The notes under the pieces were generated by a model. That model was not told the DNA's origin, ran no database searches, and worked only from the letters and a program-made list of their open reading frames with translations. Shown here piece after piece: positions 152-18,178 of a stretch of DNA of 42,980 nucleotides (position 1 is the first letter of the stretch; the number at the start of each line of letters is the position of its first letter). A program made the translations under genes and the position numbers. Source of the stretch: a virus (taxonomy: Duplodnaviria > Heunggongvirae > Uroviricota > Caudoviricetes); IMG/VR virus record IMGVR_UViG_2923355181_000001. One strand, given 5' to 3'.

Positions 152-227
<76 letters not shown>

Positions 228-280
228 GTTTAAAAGGCATCGGCGTCAGCGGATGTCTGGCTGAAAGGCCTGAAGAATTT

Positions 281-354
281 GGCGCGTTAACAAAGCGGTT
301 ATGTAGCGGATTGCAAATCCGTCTAGTCCGGTTCGACTCCGGAACGCGCCTCCA
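281..354 (+). tRNA. cysT: tRNA-Cys (GCA)
   Basis: GGCGCGTTAACAAAGCGGTTATGTAGCGGATTGCAAATCC...GCGCCTCCA; GCA anticodon in loop, CCA end. Confidence 0.93.
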
Positions 355-366
355 CTTTTTTCCCGA

Positions 367-453
367 GCCCGGATGGTGGAATCGGTAGACACAAGGGATT
401 TAAAATCCCTCGGCGTTCGCGCTGTGCGGGTTCAAGTCCCGCTCCGGGTACCA
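367..453 (+). tRNA. leuZ: tRNA-Leu (UAA), class II with long variable arm
   Basis: GCCCGGATGGTGGAATCGGTAGACACAAGGGATTTAAAATCCC...GGGTACCA; 87 nt, UAA anticodon; immediately precedes the prophage integrase. Confidence 0.92.
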
Positions 454-2793: not shown

Positions 2794-5006
2794 GCTGTTT
2801 GCTCCTGTGCAGCGGTAAGGGCGGCGAGGCGTTCAGTTTTAATGTCGGTGATACGGCGCAGACGTGATCCCAGATACGATGAATATTCTTTATCGCCTTT
2901 GGTTTCCGCTGCTTTCCTGTGTACATCCACTTCGCGGGCGATGAGGCCAAATACCTTGTTTACTTCGTTGGCGGTTACCGCGGCGGCCAGCGTATTGGCA
3001 ACGTTGATAAGCTTCTCATCCAGTTCCTTACGCAGACGGGTAGCATCTTCCGCATTCTCGCTGGCATTCTTGATATCAAACTCAGCTTTATTCCTCTGGC
3101 GGTATTCCGGATTGTCGTACAGGCCCATGAAAATATCGGCGCTGAATCCGAGAGGGGATAGCGCTTTCTTAACAGCATCCGTCCAGGATTTCTTCGGTGC
3201 TTCGCCGTCGCTTGTTGGTCCGTATTTAGTGTCGTAGATATAAGGTGTGCATCCGTAAGCCTCGGACTCACCGCGTACCCCATTCAATATGTACCAGACT
3301 CTCACTTTCATGGTGTGGTGCATTTCACATAGGTACCCGCCAACACCGTCTTGAATCAGATCCCATTCTATTTTTTCACCAACCTGTTTTTTGCGAACTA
3401 TTGGTGCGCCTTTATCAAAGCGCTCCTCCAGCACCTCTACCCCCCAGCCAATACCAAATGGCCCAAATTCGCGAGTCGCTTTCATCGCTATATAAGTGCC
3501 GTTGATGGATGTGCCGCCGCCATTCTGAGAGAAAGCACTGGTGAAGCGCTCATCGGTTTTGAATACGTTCTTCCACAATGCCAGGTTATCCGTGTCATCT
3601 GAGTCCTTTAACTCCGTTTCGATAGCTGAGATTGCATTCTGCCGCTTGTGCTCTTCGGCATGGATCCGCTCAACCAGCGCGTCAACGTTCTGCACCAGAT
3701 CCTTTACCTGCTCGCTAAGTTGTTCTTGTGGAGGAGTCTCTTCTGCCAGGGTAATAGCTGCAGGTTCCCTCTGTGATACGGCGTTATTTTCAGGTACGTC
3801 ATACACATGGCGAGGCGTGACAAACTGCTCACGCAACTGCTGCAAACTACGTTCTCCAGCATTTGCAGCTTCGCTTTTTTCGCCCTGATTTGAGGGTGTT
3901 TCTGACATCATCCCATCAATTGAGAATCGTCCGCCGCCGTGGTTGGTGACTTTTACATCATCCTTGGGTGCTGCTTCCTTTGGCTTCTCTTCAACAGCAT
4001 TTGCATCACGCTGCCCGTTAGCTTGCAGCCAGTTGTCGATGTGACTGCGCAGGGATTGTGGGAAGTGGTACGTGTCTTTTGCGGGGGCGCTCTGAATAAC
4101 ACCGAATACTGATGCGCGGTCATAGGCAAGGATCTGATCCGTTGTGCGCAAGGCCATTGACCAGCGTTTAAAATCTTCCCTGTCCTGACTGATTATTTCG
4201 TCTGCCGCTTTCAGGATGCTGGGGGTGATTTTTTCCGGGGCAACAGGTAACAGGGCGCAGGCAATTTCACGATCCAGAGTGGCGTGAGTCTGTTTGTAAG
4301 GACGTGCGGATGCTGTTTCTGGTTTTACCTCCGGCAGCATTTCATCTCGTTTACCGGGATTCTCTACCCATTTTTTTATAAATTTGGAGATAGTCCAACT
4401 GGTCGGGTTTTGTTCCTGGGTATCGCAACTTGCCAAAATTGCATGTACCAGATTATTCAATCCAGCAATATGCATGTACTCGATGGGCTTACACGCCACC
4501 ATGGCATCAAGAACGATGCGGTTAAACGCGTCAACCTCATCCTCACTGTCAGTATCACTGTTATCGAGCATCTCCAGGTATTCACGCGTCTGCACAAGCA
4601 ATTCACTGTCGACTTCGTTGGCGTCGTGGCTGAACAGCAGAACGGCGGCGAATCGTTCACGAGCCGGCAGTTTCATCAGGTCGCTAACCTGTGAGATATC
4701 TGCTGAACTGCAATCTGAATCAACAGGAGTGTTAACTACCCATTTTTCGCCATCAAAACTGTGTTCTGTGGCAAACGTCTCATCAAACTCACCGACGCCT
4801 GGGCGCGGTTGGCCCGGGGCATCTTCCCAGATTTTAGGTTTGAAATAGTTGTCGCCGTGGTCAGGGTAGGCTTCCCACAATTTGCCGATGATGATGTTCT
4901 CGGCAACTTTTTTGTTAGGGGCGGCGATGGCGATGGCCAGCGCCGGGATCGCGCCGTTTTTGAGCGCGCCTTTTTTCGCTTCTAACAAGCCGTTAAAAAT
5001 GGTCAT
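2790..5006 (-). CDS. large recombination protein with Rad52-like single-strand annealing domain plus about 470-aa N-terminal region of unknown function
   Basis: 738-aa uninterrupted ORF; residues about 470-620 (...SQNGGGTSINGTYIAMKATREFGPFGIGWGVEV...KKSWTDAVKKALSPLGFSADIF) resemble the Rad52 N-terminal core; start has ATGAGGAAAGACCAATG context. Confidence 0.65.
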   Translation of the reverse strand: MTIFNGLLEAKKGALKNGAIPALAIAIAAPNKKVAENIIIGKLWEAYPDHGDNYFKPKIWEDAPGQPRPGVGEFDETFATEHSFDGEKWVVNTPVDSDCSSADISQVSDLMKLPARERFAAVLLFSHDANEVDSELLVQTREYLEMLDNSDTDSEDEVDAFNRIVLDAMVACKPIEYMHIAGLNNLVHAILASCDTQEQNPTSWTISKFIKKWVENPGKRDEMLPEVKPETASARPYKQTHATLDREIACALLPVAPEKITPSILKAADEIISQDREDFKRWSMALRTTDQILAYDRASVFGVIQSAPAKDTYHFPQSLRSHIDNWLQANGQRDANAVEEKPKEAAPKDDVKVTNHGGGRFSIDGMMSETPSNQGEKSEAANAGERSLQQLREQFVTPRHVYDVPENNAVSQREPAAITLAEETPPQEQLSEQVKDLVQNVDALVERIHAEEHKRQNAISAIETELKDSDDTDNLALWKNVFKTDERFTSAFSQNGGGTSINGTYIAMKATREFGPFGIGWGVEVLEERFDKGAPIVRKKQVGEKIEWDLIQDGVGGYLCEMHHTMKVRVWYILNGVRGESEAYGCTPYIYDTKYGPTSDGEAPKKSWTDAVKKALSPLGFSADIFMGLYDNPEYRQRNKAEFDIKNASENAEDATRLRKELDEKLINVANTLAAAVTANEVNKVFGLIAREVDVHRKAAETKGDKEYSSYLGSRLRRITDIKTERLAALTAAQEQTA

Positions 5007-6367: not shown

Positions 6368-6781
6368 CTATTTTGTCTGGTTTTTGGCTTCAAGTAGTTC
6401 TTTTAGCAGTAGATCGAAGTGCTCTCTTTTTTCTTTTAGCTCATTGATTAATTTATTTTTTTCGCTCTCAGGCAGTCCTCTGAATAGTTGCAGTAGAGCC
6501 TGTTCTTGCGGGGTTAGTTCTTGATTGTAATTACCCGGGTGTAGTGTGGATTCATCCAAATATTCCCCTTCATTCATGAAGAAAAAATGAACAGGGTATC
6601 CGGTCACTTTTGCTAGCTTGTCTAATTTATCTTTTCTTGGAGTTACCCCATTACACCATGCCTGAACTGATTGAGCCGTAACCCCAATATGGCGAGCTAA
6701 CTCAGATTGAGACCAGCCTAAGTCTTTTAGAATCCGTTGTAGTCGGCTAGCAAAAGCCATGTTTTTCGTTTTTGTGTTCAT
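6368..6781 (-). CDS. prophage repressor, HTH (XRE-type) without peptidase S24 domain
   Basis: HTH-like segment FASRLQRILKDLGWSQSELARHIGVTAQSVQAWCNG; divergent from a Cro-like gene; track ORF begins at TTG 6796, ATG 6781 or 6760 more likely (possibly leaderless). Confidence 0.7.
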   Translation of the reverse strand: MNTKTKNMAFASRLQRILKDLGWSQSELARHIGVTAQSVQAWCNGVTPRKDKLDKLAKVTGYPVHFFFMNEGEYLDESTLHPGNYNQELTPQEQALLQLFRGLPESEKNKLINELKEKREHFDLLLKELLEAKNQTK

Positions 6782-11691: not shown

Positions 11692-11963
11692 ATTGACTTA
11701 GAAAAAGTCCGGGGCTATAGTTTCCGCGCAGCCGCAAAATCGGTTGCCGGGATTGGCGTCCCGGATATCTAAGTGACGCATAGCCGCGTTAGCGGTTTTT
11801 TTATGTGTTAGGCACGGCCACATTCGCATTATGGTGGGCTGTGTGGGGGCTTCTGTGGAAGCGCCGGGTTCACTTAGCCGGTTACGCCAACCCTGCACAG
11901 CTCACCACCAGATGATTGGCGTCGCTGGTGGTGATGAAAAAAACACTAAGTGAGGCCACTGCG

Positions 11964-12752
11964 ATGACAGTCCAAATATCTGCGGAATCCCTTTCTCCGC
12001 TACATCATAACCAACTTCCCGTCATCACTACTGAATTGCTTGCCAGTTTGTATGGCACGGAAGTAAATGGTATCCAGCAAAACTTCAAGCGCAACATCGC
12101 CAGATTTGTCGTAGGAAAGCATTTTTTTAAGCTGGAAGGTAATGAATTACGCGACTTCAAAAACAGACTGACAGATAGTCAGTCAGTTGCTAAACATACC
12201 CGATCCCTCATTCTCTGGACAGAACGCGGCGCAGCTCGCCATGCCAAAATGCTGGAAACAGAACAGGCCTGGGAAGTTTTCGAAAAGCTGGAAGATTGTT
12301 ATTTTAGCCAGCGTCCAGAGAGGCGGAGTACAACTACCGATGACCGTACTCCCTTGCGTGATGCCGTTAATATACTGGTCGGCAAGAAAGGCATGATGTA
12401 TCCCGATGCCTACACCATGATTCATCAACGCTTCGCCGTCTCTCACATAGAACAACTGTCACAGACGCAAATGTTAGAGGCGATTGAATACATCCACTGC
12501 CTGCTACTCGATGAAAATCACCCAACCATTCCAGATTTTTCTTTTATCACCACTATCAAAAATGGAAAAGTGACCGGGATGCGCCATGTTGCCAAAGGCG
12601 AACATCTGATGACCTTTGACGCTTTCAAAGAGATCGCTGAGCGGGCAGGGTATCTGGTGATCCACAGCGACAATCTGCGAAGTATGACACTGGATAAATT
12701 GATGGTAATGGGGAAAAAGTCGGCTATATCCGTTGCTAATTCAGCATTTTGA
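11964..12752 (+). CDS. phage antirepressor-like protein (ORF6N/KilA-type)
   Basis: Track ORF starts TTG 11916; ATG 11964 preceded by GAGG; N-terminal region resembles antirepressor N-domains. Confidence 0.55.
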   Translation: MTVQISAESLSPLHHNQLPVITTELLASLYGTEVNGIQQNFKRNIARFVVGKHFFKLEGNELRDFKNRLTDSQSVAKHTRSLILWTERGAARHAKMLETEQAWEVFEKLEDCYFSQRPERRSTTTDDRTPLRDAVNILVGKKGMMYPDAYTMIHQRFAVSHIEQLSQTQMLEAIEYIHCLLLDENHPTIPDFSFITTIKNGKVTGMRHVAKGEHLMTFDAFKEIAERAGYLVIHSDNLRSMTLDKLMVMGKKSAISVANSAF

Positions 12753-12926: not shown

Positions 12927-13850
12927 TTATTGGTTTCTGAGGAAAGCGATTCTTGAAAGGGTCATTTGCGTCTGGCAGTCGACCATTTTCTTGACTTCAG
13001 CATCTGTTCCCTGCATTGAAACTTTACCGCACATAGCATCCTTAGTTTTGATCCACTGACGCTGAGAAGGCAGCAAATCTTTTTTCTTCGCCGGGGTTAA
13101 CTTGCTCCAGACGGTACTCAAATCAGAGTCGGCATTCGCAAATGCCATTCGGGACTGATCAAGGTTGTCAGCTTTTTGCGGCTGAAGTTGTGCCTGTCTC
13201 TCTATTTGCTTCTCCGCCTCATACTTAGCCTGTTCTTGCGCCCTGAGTTGCACCTGTTGTTCCGCTTCAATTTGACTCTGTTGGGCATCCTTAGCCTGCT
13301 GGATTTTCTGCTGCTCAACGATCGGGGTGATAATGGAAAGCGATGTCAGTAAAGCGGCGCCCACTGATATCGGATTATCAGTAGAGGTTTTTACAAAAAC
13401 GTTTTTCTGATCGTCGGTCGCCTGCACGGTGTAGGTGATACGTTTTGAAAAGGCGTTTGCGTTGTTCTCCAAAAACAGGCTTTCCATTTGCTTATCGAGA
13501 TTACGATTAAAATTCTTTCTGTAAGCATCTGAAAGCTGGACGTACTCGTTCGCAGATAGAGTCATCGTCACGGTCCCTTCACAAGTTTTCATTGTGCTGC
13601 CCGTGTCACTTGATGTTGTGGAGATCTCAGAGATGGCTAGTTTGATCTTGTCCAGTGTGCTTCGTTTGGTCTGATTAGTGACATCAGGGTATTTATCGAC
13701 CTGTTCAGAGAGTCCTTCATAAGCAGATTTTTTTAATAAATCCATGAGAGCTGACTGGGTTATTTCCGAAGAACAACCGATCTCATCTTTTTTGTTATCA
13801 CAGCCTGTAAGGGCAATGGCGAGTAAGAGTACTGAGTATTTTAATCTCAT
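12927..13850 (-). CDS. lipoprotein with possible C-terminal DUF1311 (LprI-like) domain
   Basis: Signal peptide and lipobox MRLKYSVLLLAIALTGC; coiled-coil Q/E-rich middle; C-terminal QRQWIKTKDAMCG...VDCQ...TLSRIAFL pattern. Confidence 0.55.
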   Translation of the reverse strand: MRLKYSVLLLAIALTGCDNKKDEIGCSSEITQSALMDLLKKSAYEGLSEQVDKYPDVTNQTKRSTLDKIKLAISEISTTSSDTGSTMKTCEGTVTMTLSANEYVQLSDAYRKNFNRNLDKQMESLFLENNANAFSKRITYTVQATDDQKNVFVKTSTDNPISVGAALLTSLSIITPIVEQQKIQQAKDAQQSQIEAEQQVQLRAQEQAKYEAEKQIERQAQLQPQKADNLDQSRMAFANADSDLSTVWSKLTPAKKKDLLPSQRQWIKTKDAMCGKVSMQGTDAEVKKMVDCQTQMTLSRIAFLRNQ

Positions 13851-15038: not shown

Positions 15039-15737
15039 ATGGGTACGGCATTAATTTCAAGCTTTATTAGTGGTGCAATAGCTATAATCTCTATTGCTAT
15101 ATCTACTTATAATCAGAATAGAATAAACAAGCTCAATGAATCACTGGATGTAAGGAGAAAACATCAGTACTATATTGAACCGTTAATTCGCTCAGCTTCA
15201 GACTTACAAAGCCGTATTTATAATATATTAGAATTGGGGTTCATTGAAGAGTTTTATCATAATGGGAATAAGCGCCAACAAGATTATGTTATCAACAATA
15301 CTGTTTTTCTTTTTTCCCAGTTTTTTGCATGGACAGAAGCTGCCCGCATAGACATTCAATACCTTAGCCTAGAAAAAAATAAAAAAATGAGGGAGTTTAT
15401 TAGATTACAGAACAATATTAACTCATTAATCCAAACAGACGTCTTTGGTCAGTATTTTATGTTTTTCATAGGAGAGCAGAGAGCTATTGCAGAAAAGATG
15501 CTGATATCAACAGATACTGGATTTGATTGCATAGGTTACGGCAGTTTCACAAAGGAAAATTGCTTTATCAATGAGCCATTTTTTTTAGATTTAAACAATG
15601 AAGTGATAAATATGACAAGAGATATCGGAATTTATAAAGAAAGGCTAATCAGAATACAGCACGCGTTAATCGATTTAATTAATTTTCTTGATCCTGGCAT
15701 GATTCGATTTGACGGAAAAAAATATGGAAAAATATAA
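15039..15737 (+). CDS. hypothetical membrane-anchored protein in strongly AT-rich cargo
   Basis: 232-aa ORF, AAAGGA RBS, N-terminal hydrophobic helix ALISSFISGAIAIISIAISTY; codon usage and GC far below flanking phage genes. Confidence 0.6.
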   Translation: MGTALISSFISGAIAIISIAISTYNQNRINKLNESLDVRRKHQYYIEPLIRSASDLQSRIYNILELGFIEEFYHNGNKRQQDYVINNTVFLFSQFFAWTEAARIDIQYLSLEKNKKMREFIRLQNNINSLIQTDVFGQYFMFFIGEQRAIAEKMLISTDTGFDCIGYGSFTKENCFINEPFFLDLNNEVINMTRDIGIYKERLIRIQHALIDLINFLDPGMIRFDGKKYGKI

Positions 15738-15955: not shown

Positions 15956-16199
15956 TATTAAATTTGGCTCCACGCCATAGATGTGTCAGCTCATATCTTA
16001 TCTAATACACACAATAACTTTCTCATTCTTGGAGAATTATTTTTTTAAGGGTAGGTGTTGACGTTAGAGCAAAAGAATGGTGATTTTTTTGATGTGTATT
16101 ACGTTGGAACTGATGGGAATAACTATCTGTTTTCAACGCACTGCTAATTTATCAAGGCCCTTTGATCAGGGCCTTCGAAAGACTGTTGGACCGAGAGAG

Positions 16200-16805
16200 T
16201 TACTTGCGTTTAAAAAGGTATTTTGTCACGACCAGCACGAGGCCGAATACCTCTGTCAAAGTACCGCCCATGTACAACTGTAGTGTTAAATCCTCAAATT
16301 CCAGCTTACCTGCGCCGTCGGCAATAAATACACCATTCATTATCAGAAGTTGGAAAGCAAGGATAATCAGGAACCATTTCCCGTATCGTTTTTTTAGAGC
16401 GATTTCTGCTTCAAAATCTTTGTTGTTGAGTTGTTTGCGCTCATGCTCGGTATCAAGTGAATTCACCTGTTTCACAGATGTGAACTCGGTCAAGATTTTA
16501 CTCTCAGTACGGGTGACTTGTTGAGAGGGTGTAGCAGTTGGAATTCTTTTGCTAGACGCAGCTACAGCCATTTTGCGAGCTTCGGCAGCTCTTTTTCTGG
16601 CTATTCCGCGAATACGGACAGCCGTTTTTTTGGGGGCGTGCGAAACCTTTGGCTGAGGTGAAGCTTCGTCAGGAGACTGAACCGGAGTTTCATCGTCCTC
16701 CGGCTCAACCTCTTCTGCTAACTGACGGTGTAGGTTGAGGGAATCCTTCAGTCTGCGTGCTACTTCCTGTTTGAAACGGCTGTTAAAATCGTCATCCGAT
16801 GGCAT
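16200..16805 (-). CDS. hypothetical membrane protein with charged N-terminal region and C-terminal hydrophobic hairpin
   Basis: 201-aa ORF immediately downstream of the ImmA-like gene on the same strand; C-terminal WFLIILAFQLLIMNGVFIA...VFGLVLVVTKYLF hydrophobic. Confidence 0.6.
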   Translation of the reverse strand: MPSDDDFNSRFKQEVARRLKDSLNLHRQLAEEVEPEDDETPVQSPDEASPQPKVSHAPKKTAVRIRGIARKRAAEARKMAVAASSKRIPTATPSQQVTRTESKILTEFTSVKQVNSLDTEHERKQLNNKDFEAEIALKKRYGKWFLIILAFQLLIMNGVFIADGAGKLEFEDLTLQLYMGGTLTEVFGLVLVVTKYLFKRK

Positions 16806-16814
16806 TTTAAAGCG

Positions 16815-17303
16815 TTACCCCAACCTCAAGTTCTTTAAACGATAAGTCATCGCATCGTCAGATACGCCAAAATAATGCGCCATTATATAACTTGGTTGAC
16901 CGTCAGCGTGCAGTTTTCTGACCTCATCTACCGGCATCAGAAGTTCTGCTGCGAACTTGTTTGCAAAAATTTCATCAGGATGCGTTCCGGCGCTTGCGGT
17001 TTCGCCACGTAAATCAACGTACTCATATTCATCGCTATGCGATGCTTGCCGGGCGATGTAATGCCCCAACTCATGCCCACATGAAAAACGTTGACGAACT
17101 TTGTTGTCATCACTGTTTAGAAAGATCGCTGGATCTTGATCTTTTTGTTTAATCAGTGCGCCAGAAACTTTCCCAGGAAGATCGGTAATAAAAACATCTA
17201 ATCCCATGTCGTGAGCAATTTTCGCTGGATCAACAGGGAAACCACGCCCGCACCAGAACGTGTCCAGCACTCGCCGGGCGTGCTCTCTTGGGTTGGTAGC
17301 CAT
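16815..17303 (-). CDS. ImmA/IrrE-family (COG2856-like) zinc metallopeptidase
   Basis: 162-aa ORF with HEXXH motif (SCGHELGHYIA); strong RBS GGAGGAG. Confidence 0.65.
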   Translation of the reverse strand: MATNPREHARRVLDTFWCGRGFPVDPAKIAHDMGLDVFITDLPGKVSGALIKQKDQDPAIFLNSDDNKVRQRFSCGHELGHYIARQASHSDEYEYVDLRGETASAGTHPDEIFANKFAAELLMPVDEVRKLHADGQPSYIMAHYFGVSDDAMTYRLKNLRLG

Positions 17304-17679
17304 AGCTCCTCCAGTTACTGCATTACGATTATTGGTTGAAATATAGACAGCATGTTCCGTACCACATTCCTGTAAAAGTGCAAATTCTGCACTTCTGGTA
17401 CGATATTAACTGTTAGTAGTAAAGTCTTCCAGATAAATCACTTTAAAATCTTGTGAATTGCTTGCTTTTTACGCTGTATTGTGGATGGTTCAATGTTTCC
17501 AGTAAAAACATACATGATAATCATGAGTTTAGTGTTTTTTTAGGCGTCTATATGTTTCTGGAAAATACAGGTCTAACCTGATCTTATCGTTGAGATTTTT
17601 TGTACTCAGTATGCGTGAACGATTCGACCAGGTGACTGTGTACGTGAAGAAGACCGCCCTTAATATTTTAAATGTGCAA

Positions 17680-17700
17680 CCCCTCAGAAGAGGGGCTACT
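17680..17700 (-). terminator. hairpin terminator after the 77-aa gene
   Basis: CCCCTC-agaa-GAGGGG directly 3' of the gene stop, followed on the minus strand by a U-containing tract. Confidence 0.4.
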
Positions 17701-17701
17701 C

Positions 17702-17935
17702 TCACTTCTGCAGTATCTCGCCAATACCTGCCAGATTCTCGTCCATCTTGTCACCGTTTTCGATAAGGATGGAGTTGAGCCGATTCAGTTGCATAGCAAT
17801 TTCAAGTTTGATTAAGGTATCCACCGATACACCAGTTTCTTTTGCTAACTTAGTAAGAGCCGCAGCTCGATTGGCTAAATTAAAATCATCGAACTCATAA
17901 CGACTTCTGCACGGCTGGTTGCCTAACGTACCCAT
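17702..17935 (-). CDS. hypothetical small protein (possible DNA-binding)
   Basis: 77-aa ORF with RBS ATGAGGAA; own terminator. Confidence 0.45.
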   Translation of the reverse strand: MGTLGNQPCRSRYEFDDFNLANRAAALTKLAKETGVSVDTLIKLEIAMQLNRLNSILIENGDKMDENLAGIGEILQK

Positions 17936-18178
17936 AGTGATTCCTCATGATATAAAGACCCAACAATATAAATTACCAGGCACATCATAAGATAGGGTTC
18001 CAGCCCATATTTTCAAATATTTGCAAGTATCACCGTTCAGTCTAAAAAGTTGGATGATGATTTAACGAGCCATAACAAAACCCTGCCTCGGAGGTTTTTT
18101 CTTTTTTATAGAACTCAGCGGCGTGAAAACGAATAATAAATTGTGCAAATAGTGCAGTTTTTATTATTCGAGGTAATT

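Follow-up and report, generated by a model that had tools for sequence, protein, structure and literature searches.

The 42,980-nt stretch of DNA analysed here (IMG/VR virus record IMGVR_UViG_2923355181_000001, hereafter the window) is a lambdoid Escherichia coli prophage. On its minus strand it encodes a short M78 (ImmA/IrrE-type) zinc metallopeptidase of 162 amino acids (aa), followed directly by a membrane protein of 201 aa. Judged by sequence comparison, both proteins are homologous to the RosmerTA pair of Gordonia phage Kita, which has been tested experimentally (Ernits et al. 2023 PNAS, PMC10440598). RosmerTA was first defined in Millman et al. 2022 as a phage defence system composed of a Zn-peptidase antitoxin plus a toxin whose function was unknown. 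The pair in E. coli is probably a self-contained RosmerTA-like toxin–antitoxin or abortive-infection module that is carried as a moron by the prophage. By analogy, the finding represents a widespread E. coli member of the kind of system described in 2023, with a predicted function. An earlier note on this DNA, made from the sequence alone, had presented the architecture as unusual; it is not new, having been described and tested in 2023 for Kita. The features of the pair are as follows.

16815..17303, minus strand: rmrA-like gene for the 162-aa stand-alone M78 (ImmA/IrrE-type) zinc metallopeptidase, predicted antitoxin (open reading frame (ORF), Pfam, homology)
17061..17075, minus strand: HELGH zinc-binding/catalytic motif, H77-H81 (H77, E78, H81), read from the sequence
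16971..16973, minus strand: codon of E111 in the E-x-x-A-N-x-F-A motif, probable third zinc ligand (invariance, alignment with the CapP glutamate)
16200..16805, minus strand: rmrT_D5-like gene for the 201-aa membrane protein, predicted pore-forming depolarising toxin (ORF, homology)
16710..16796, minus strand: N-terminal helix, aa 4-32, conserved in Enterobacterales with L19, L23 and R27 invariant (pLDDT 66-86)
16452..16709, minus strand: disordered, charged linker rich in Pro, Ser, Thr and Ala, aa 33-118 (pLDDT <50 at 34-67 and 90-118)
16314..16451, minus strand: juxtamembrane amphipathic helix with a D..LKK.Y motif, leading into transmembrane (TM) helix 1, aa 119-164, hydrophobic core 144-162 (AlphaFold, hydropathy, alignment)
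16209..16292, minus strand: TM helix 2, aa 172-199, with the signature GT(L/M)TEVFGLVLV(V/I)TKYLF and an invariant intramembrane E185, then basic KRK (alignment, AlphaFold)

The proteins tested by Ernits et al. are identified in the supplement of PMC10440598 as RmrA_D25 (YP_009301393.1) and RmrT_D5 (YP_009301394.1). They are encoded by Kita genes 32 and 33, which specify a 178-aa metalloprotease and a 119-aa protein and overlap by 4 nt. The window peptidase aligns with RmrA_D25 over its full length (BLASTP, 43% identity over 157 aa, E 1e-41), and PF06114 matches both proteins. Among 50,697 phage records, the closest relatives of the window peptidase are proteases of the Kita cluster, apart from a single E. 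coli phage record with an identical peptidase. This record stops 3 nt past the peptidase match, and a tblastn search of the phage records with the 201-aa protein returned no match.

For the membrane protein, the direct similarity to RmrT_D5 is confined to the TM hairpin (BLASTP, 32% identity over residues 144-199, E 1e-6). An alignment of the proteobacterial with the actinobacterial sequences by hhalign yielded a probability of 97.9% (E 4e-13), and of 96.2% when the bridging sequence was left out. The bridge is a Rhodococcus homologue that was found by the E. coli profile and matches Kita gene 33 directly (tblastn). A T..E..G....T.YLF signature is common to the 201-aa family and to the Rhodococcus and Gordonia-phage proteins. 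The hydrophobic domain alone would leave the toxin homology doubtful; it is deemed secure because a 43%-identical partner stands in the same order and at the same spacing. In PADLOC and Pfam, the Kita proteins behave like those of the window, with CapP as the best match of the protease and no match for the toxin. At the sequence level, the pair has every feature that marks a Kita-type RosmerTA.

The published experiments provide the functional side of the comparison. Expression of RmrT_D5 rapidly depolarises and permeabilises E. coli, and the toxin is toxic alone. The Kita protease neutralises it only partly, and no complex of the two could be modelled. In E. coli, the Kita pair confers protection against the phages Bas54 and Bas59 (PMC10440598). 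The E. coli proteins WP_001138663 and WP_000224749 were not found among the NetFlax supplement entries listed, and a search of the literature available returned no later mechanistic papers on RmrA/RmrT.

The 162-aa protein carries the label 'ImmA/IrrE family metallo-endopeptidase' in RefSeq and matches Peptidase_M78 (PF06114) over residues 32-157 with an E-value of 7.7e-18, which bears out the earlier assignment of an HELGH peptidase of the ImmA/IrrE type. H77, E78, H81 and E111 are invariant in all 14 partner peptidases compared, which come from four phyla. This invariance of the zinc site argues that catalysis probably matters. The only sequence match in the PDB is CapP (7t5t, E 1.7e-4), a structure in which zinc is held by His96, His100 and Glu129. 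E111 aligns with the zinc-ligand glutamate of this structure and is, on the alignment, the probable third zinc ligand. CapP is also the best PADLOC match (2.4e-25), restricted to model positions 3-151 of 242. The PADLOC models of RmrA match the protein on the peptidase part only (~100-150 positions), with E-values down to 5.8e-12. Neither a helix-turn-helix (HTH) domain nor a C-terminal GAF/sensor domain was detected by Pfam or PADLOC, and the M78 domain leaves no room for them within 162 residues.

Scans with Pfam, NCBIfam and PADLOC place the 201-aa protein in no family, and PHROGs assigns it to the unnamed family phrog_5346. The hydropathy scan marks a strong segment at residues 144-162, where the Kyte-Doolittle mean is 2.26, and a second, weaker segment at ~176-196; the loop between the hydrophobic segments is acidic and the C-terminus basic (KRK). 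AlphaFold, run on a 20-sequence alignment, places a helix at 4-32, disorder at 34-118, a long helix at 119-164 and, after a short loop, a helix at 172-199. The model has a pTM of 0.28 with low confidence outside the helices, and a Foldseek search of it against the PDB returned nothing. Both analyses agree with the previously noted charged N-terminal region and C-terminal hydrophobic hairpin. From the model, we infer a hairpin of N-in/C-in orientation whose entire N-terminal part is cytoplasmic, which would bring that part within reach of the signal-less protease.

Homologues of the protein range from 130 to 239 aa and differ almost solely in the linker, that varies from near nothing to ~100 residues. 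The C-terminal 90 residues are nearly invariant, including the TM2 signature. In the homologue alignment, invariant residues extend from L117 to F160, and the D..LKK.Y motif is visible in distant members. An exhaustive profile search retrieved 659 clusters (50% identity) of the 201-aa family at E<=1e-3 and 182 at E<=1e-10. Among the matches listed, every member is small, many having 100-120 aa in total and very short N-terminal regions.

To characterise the linkage of the two genes, 18 independent lineages from the larger family were compared, ranging from Enterobacterales to Actinobacteria and including two Gordonia-phage lineages. In all 18 of them, an M78 gene lies directly 5' of the homologue of the 201-aa gene, on the same strand and abutting or overlapping it; the earlier note had proposed such a co-occurrence analysis. 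Ten of these loci come from a scan in which each species was represented by one genome (Escherichia whittamii, Leclercia, Buttiauxella, Thalassotalea, Gallibacterium, Microbulbifer, Desulfuromonas, two uncultured bacteria and a Rhodococcus metagenome-assembled genome). Each has a homologue of the 162-aa peptidase gene directly upstream, with a spacing from a 23-nt overlap to a 9-nt gap in longest-ORF calls. Similarly, three distant members picked from the profile search are each preceded by an overlapping Peptidase_M78 gene, and two further enterobacterial variants have the M78 gene upstream, with the pair located at the extreme prophage end. This pairing is far beyond chance.

The surroundings of the pair differ completely between lineages: it is found in the nin region, at the integrase end, 5' of the lysis genes of a Mu-like prophage, and at ordinary chromosomal sites behind pheT-ihfA or sucCD. 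Judged by these contexts, the module appears to travel as a unit. No HTH gene is adjacent to the pair among the called or annotated flanking genes of the lineages examined, in line with the earlier statement that the partner is not an HTH repressor. ORF maps of the ten scanned loci contain no conserved upstream ORF; the ORFs in these maps were not domain-scanned. The membrane protein gene is thus accompanied by an M78 gene throughout these lineages, and the ordinary HTH regulators that the earlier note had named as a possible outcome for the 77-aa and 201-aa proteins were not found: the 77-aa protein has no HTH match above threshold and the 201-aa protein is strictly paired.

Two further observations concern individual loci. 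In other E. coli and Klebsiella prophages, the pair is located between an apparent tRNA 3' end (attachment site, identified by eye) and the integrase gene (extracts, ~4180-4500), which matches the near-integrase placement in Gordonia phage Kita. The toxin homologue of Desulfuromonas (extract 4355-4675) gives sub-threshold matches to S_4TM, a CBASS effector (Pfam E 0.044, PADLOC E 0.011). They are judged to be probably noise from TM composition, though the best match of the partner protease is the CBASS-associated CapP.

In the window, the pair is located in the nin region, and the stop codon of the peptidase gene and the start of the 201-aa gene are 9 nt apart. A 2.2-kb stretch around the pair was found in 452 of 5,426 complete E. 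coli genomes (~8%) and is 100% identical in many chromosomes. According to the annotation of strain SK1144, the region is placed between the replication genes and the DUF1367, DUF1364 and antiterminator Q genes; the early and late phage operons run on the other strand. The three minus-strand ORFs that the earlier note had described in this part of the window were confirmed (77 aa, 17935..17702; 162 aa, 17303..16815; 201 aa, 16805..16200). The features next to the pair are listed below.

17304..17600, minus strand: leader/promoter region, accompanies the pair in close relatives
17306..17312, minus strand: Shine-Dalgarno sequence GGAGGAG of the peptidase gene, the sole upstream element kept across enterobacterial loci and genera
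17702..17935, minus strand: 77-aa gene (ORF), upstream of the pair

A prophage of E. whittamii shares a 95%-identical block with window positions 16178-17565; a weak continuation extends to 17600, where the similarity breaks off. On this comparison, the module would consist of the two genes and a leader of ~300 bp, approximately 16178-17600. The leader sequence is not kept in more distant loci. A conserved operator or promoter 5' of the peptidase gene was considered and rejected, as only the Shine-Dalgarno sequence is kept across genera and the promoter scan was negative. A small hidden gene or RNA in the 400-bp gap at 17304-17701 was likewise rejected, with no credible ORF, no Rfam match and no notable repeats.

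The 77-aa gene had been counted as part of a three-gene cassette. The module comprises two genes rather than three, because the 77-aa gene shows no co-conservation with the other two. In a phmmer search, the 77-aa protein was found only in the identical E. coli locus and in none of the other 10 loci, and in the 95%-identical locus of E. whittamii, unrelated DNA takes the place of the 77-aa region (17600-18079). The family is essentially confined to E. coli (prophages), and two diverged homologues (53-55% identity) stand by themselves at other positions in prophages, with no M78 gene in the vicinity. By its distribution, the gene is an unrelated E. coli orphan outside the module. Its product is modelled as a two-helix hairpin (pLDDT 81). 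A role as a hidden HTH partner was ruled out, the protein having only a sub-threshold MerR match (E 0.13) and no PDB sequence or fold match. The terminator attributed to this gene stands only in part: a hairpin does exist 3' of the stop codon (-20.8 kcal/mol, z -3.7), but the U-tract is poor and the terminator scan made no call.

The following mechanism is proposed for the pair. The 201-aa protein, as a member of the RmrT_D5 family, would insert into the inner membrane as a helical hairpin with both ends in the cytoplasm. If unchecked, the hairpin would form pores and permeabilise and depolarise this membrane. The upstream cytoplasmic 'mini' M78 protease of the RmrA_D25 family, devoid of an HTH domain, is predicted to hold the toxin in check. 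Coupled expression of the two genes is suggested by their close spacing, that is 9 nt here and turns into an overlap in many relatives. Upon infection by certain phages, neutralisation would fail and the membrane potential collapse. The infected lysogen would die or stall before the end of the phage cycle, which would protect the clonal population and the prophage. Speculatively, neutralisation could be catalytic, with the protease cutting the toxin in its cytoplasmic N-terminal tail or in the juxtamembrane helix. Such a cleavage is attractive because a cytoplasmic enzyme reaches only the N-terminal helix, the linker and the D..LKK.Y helix.

Several points weigh against the RosmerTA assignment. 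Toxicity, neutralisation and anti-phage activity are attributed to the E. coli pair from the Kita experiments, that is, by analogy only. The identity to RmrT_D5 is low and limited to the hydrophobic region, a kind of sequence that can inflate profile scores. The ~80-100 extra N-terminal residues of the E. coli toxin are absent from the Kita protein and could alter regulation. Neutralisation in the Kita system is incomplete and no complex was modelled, so that the Kita data do not fix the mechanism of the antitoxin. The best RmrA match of the peptidase spans model positions 166-266 of 363, short of the 357-400 positions of a full-length RmrA, and the PADLOC models of RmrT match neither the 201-aa protein at E<=1 nor the Kita RmrT_D5 at E<=0.1. 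With a partial RmrA match and no RmrT match, PADLOC v2 would therefore not call the system of the window. In addition, the promoter scan found nothing on the minus strand in 17304..17600.

The earlier note had suggested a protease-gated, toxin-like or abortive-infection membrane effector. Homology to the Kita pair supports the toxin-like effector; activation by the protease runs against the Kita data, in which the protease reduces toxicity. This direction is nevertheless the main rival explanation, namely a protease-activated pro-toxin whose N-terminal helix and linker keep the precursor closed until the peptidase, switched on by a phage cue, cuts the linker and frees the pore-former. The closest characterised M78 proteases (CapP, IrrE and ImmA) are signal-activated, CapP by single-stranded DNA. 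The catalytic site is invariant, and the conserved N-terminal helix is split from the membrane domain by a disordered linker of variable length, like a cleavable tether. However, the full-length Kita toxin is toxic alone and its protease lowers toxicity, the 162-aa protein has no GAF/sensor domain as found in CapP and IrrE, and the many family members of 100-120 aa possess very short N-terminal regions. A pro-toxin is considered unlikely.

Two other explanations dispense with the toxin–antitoxin relationship. The membrane protein could have a non-toxic function in superinfection exclusion, as a holin/antiholin-like lysis modulator or as a protease anchor. Small membrane proteins at prophage moron positions are often exclusion factors, the pair is located directly 5' of an amidase gene in one Mu-like prophage, and a two-TM hairpin with N-in/C-in orientation is the topology of class II holins as well. 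Such a function is nonetheless quite improbable, given that the homologous Kita protein depolarises, permeabilises and acts as the toxin of a toxin–antitoxin system, that the pair occurs also outside prophages, and that the window prophage has holin genes of its own (annotated on the opposite strand, within the late operon). It is highly improbable that the peptidase is a classical anti-repressor of the ImmA type that cuts an HTH repressor elsewhere in the prophage to induce it, with the membrane protein as an unrelated neighbour. Against its M78 membership stands the fact that the peptidase is tied to the membrane protein rather than to an HTH gene in 18 of 18 lineages. The two genes abut or overlap, and their linkage holds at non-prophage sites (pheT-ihfA, sucCD) and in phages with unrelated immunity regions. 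A potential target would be the prophage repressor at window ~6368-6760, a short HTH protein for which no self-cleavage domain is annotated, and which would hence need an external inducer; the prophage already has a C4-RNA/ORF6N antirepressor cassette. The RosmerTA-like toxin–antitoxin module remains the preferred reading.

Pairs of a similar layout occur elsewhere. They were observed in Mycobacterium phage Che9c (metallo-protease Che9cp33 and gp33, locus tag Che9cp34; extract 1417-2312), Burkholderia phage Carl1 (gp1/gp2; extract 422-1449), a Helicobacter prophage (extract 1456-2413) and a P2-like phage (extract 1489-2665). Like the window peptidase, the proteases of these four are short and HTH-less, and they are 33-45% identical to it. 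In each case, the following gene on the same strand encodes a protein of 129-171 aa that has a hydrophilic N-terminus and contains one or two TM helices. These partners have no detectable homology to the 201-aa family (hmmsearch E>0.08). These examples point to a general design of a mini-M78 protease plus a small membrane protein in which the partners are swapped. More tentatively, neutralisation by the mini-M78 protease may be catalytic: the protease would keep cutting the cytoplasmic tail of the membrane pore-former, as an enzyme antitoxin that acts on the toxin itself, in a design that recurs with unrelated partners in temperate phages of Actinobacteria, Proteobacteria and Campylobacterota. 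If true, protease-guarded membrane effectors would form a broad class that is largely unannotated and whose only tested example is the RmrTA of Kita.

The window contains further accessory elements. At 11715-11912 (plus strand), Rfam detects isrK (80 bits), the C4 antisense RNA (75 bits) and c4 a1b1 target elements directly 5' of a gene for an ORF6N-domain (antirepressor-like) protein (~11964-12752). The stretch looks like an RNA-controlled antirepressor cassette of the P1/P7 style within a lambdoid prophage. An LprI-family (lysozyme inhibitor) lipoprotein gene is annotated at 12927-13850 (minus strand), antisense in the same accessory region, and represents another moron in a cargo-rich stretch. 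A 232-aa protein with an N-terminal hydrophobic segment, recognised by eye, is encoded at 15039-15737 (plus strand) and belongs to phrog_5606. Its PADLOC match to RTasTM, a TM protein associated with DRT, is weak (E 1.8e-5), and no reverse transcriptase lies close by. The protein may be another defence-type moron beside the pair. Three tRNA genes at the left end of the window (152-450, plus strand) may mark the chromosomal flank or the prophage attachment region.

The pair is common in E. coli, yet its genes are labelled in RefSeq only as 'ImmA/IrrE family metallo-endopeptidase' and hypothetical protein, and PADLOC v2 has no model for the toxin. Its recognition as a pair of the RosmerTA type closes a gap in the annotation of prophage-borne defence in clinical lineages of E. 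coli. It also provides a native model in E. coli for how a protease without a DNA-binding or sensor domain controls a membrane-depolarising toxin. The heterologous Kita pair could not answer this question, since its neutralisation was incomplete and a model of the complex was not obtained.

Among known systems, the RosmerTA of Kita is the closest counterpart. Both systems combine a short, HTH-less protease (162 aa in the window, 178 aa in Kita) with a toxin whose gene follows that of the protease and abuts or overlaps it, and both occupy moron positions in temperate phages. They differ in the phylum of the host (Proteobacteria for the window, Actinobacteria for Kita) and in the size of the toxin, since the E. 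coli protein has 201 aa instead of 119 aa and possesses an additional conserved N-terminal helix and a long disordered linker. With the RosmerTA of the Millman type, the pair shares the concept of a Zn-peptidase and a toxin, and the RmrA models detect the peptidase domain of the window protein. Proteins of the D25 (RmrA) node often have an N-terminal HTH domain (Ernits et al. 2023, PMC10440598); the window protease, in contrast, has none and matches the RmrA models only partially.

The M78 catalytic domain, with HExxH and a distal glutamate, is shared with CapP/CapH (CBASS), ImmA/ImmR (ICEBs1) and IrrE/DdrO (Deinococcus). Unlike these systems, the window pair has no adjacent gene for an XRE/HTH substrate, and the partner of the protease is a membrane protein. 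The protease also lacks the central linker and the C-terminal GAF domain of CapP and IrrE (162 aa compared to ~240-290 aa). Finally, the Panacea-associated PanT_D11, used as a control in Ernits et al., is likewise a small depolarising toxin in which an unstructured N-terminus precedes a TM region, and it is neutralised by a cytoplasmic antitoxin encoded next to it. The domain of that antitoxin is Panacea instead of M78, and the likeness is one of description, with no sequence relationship claimed.

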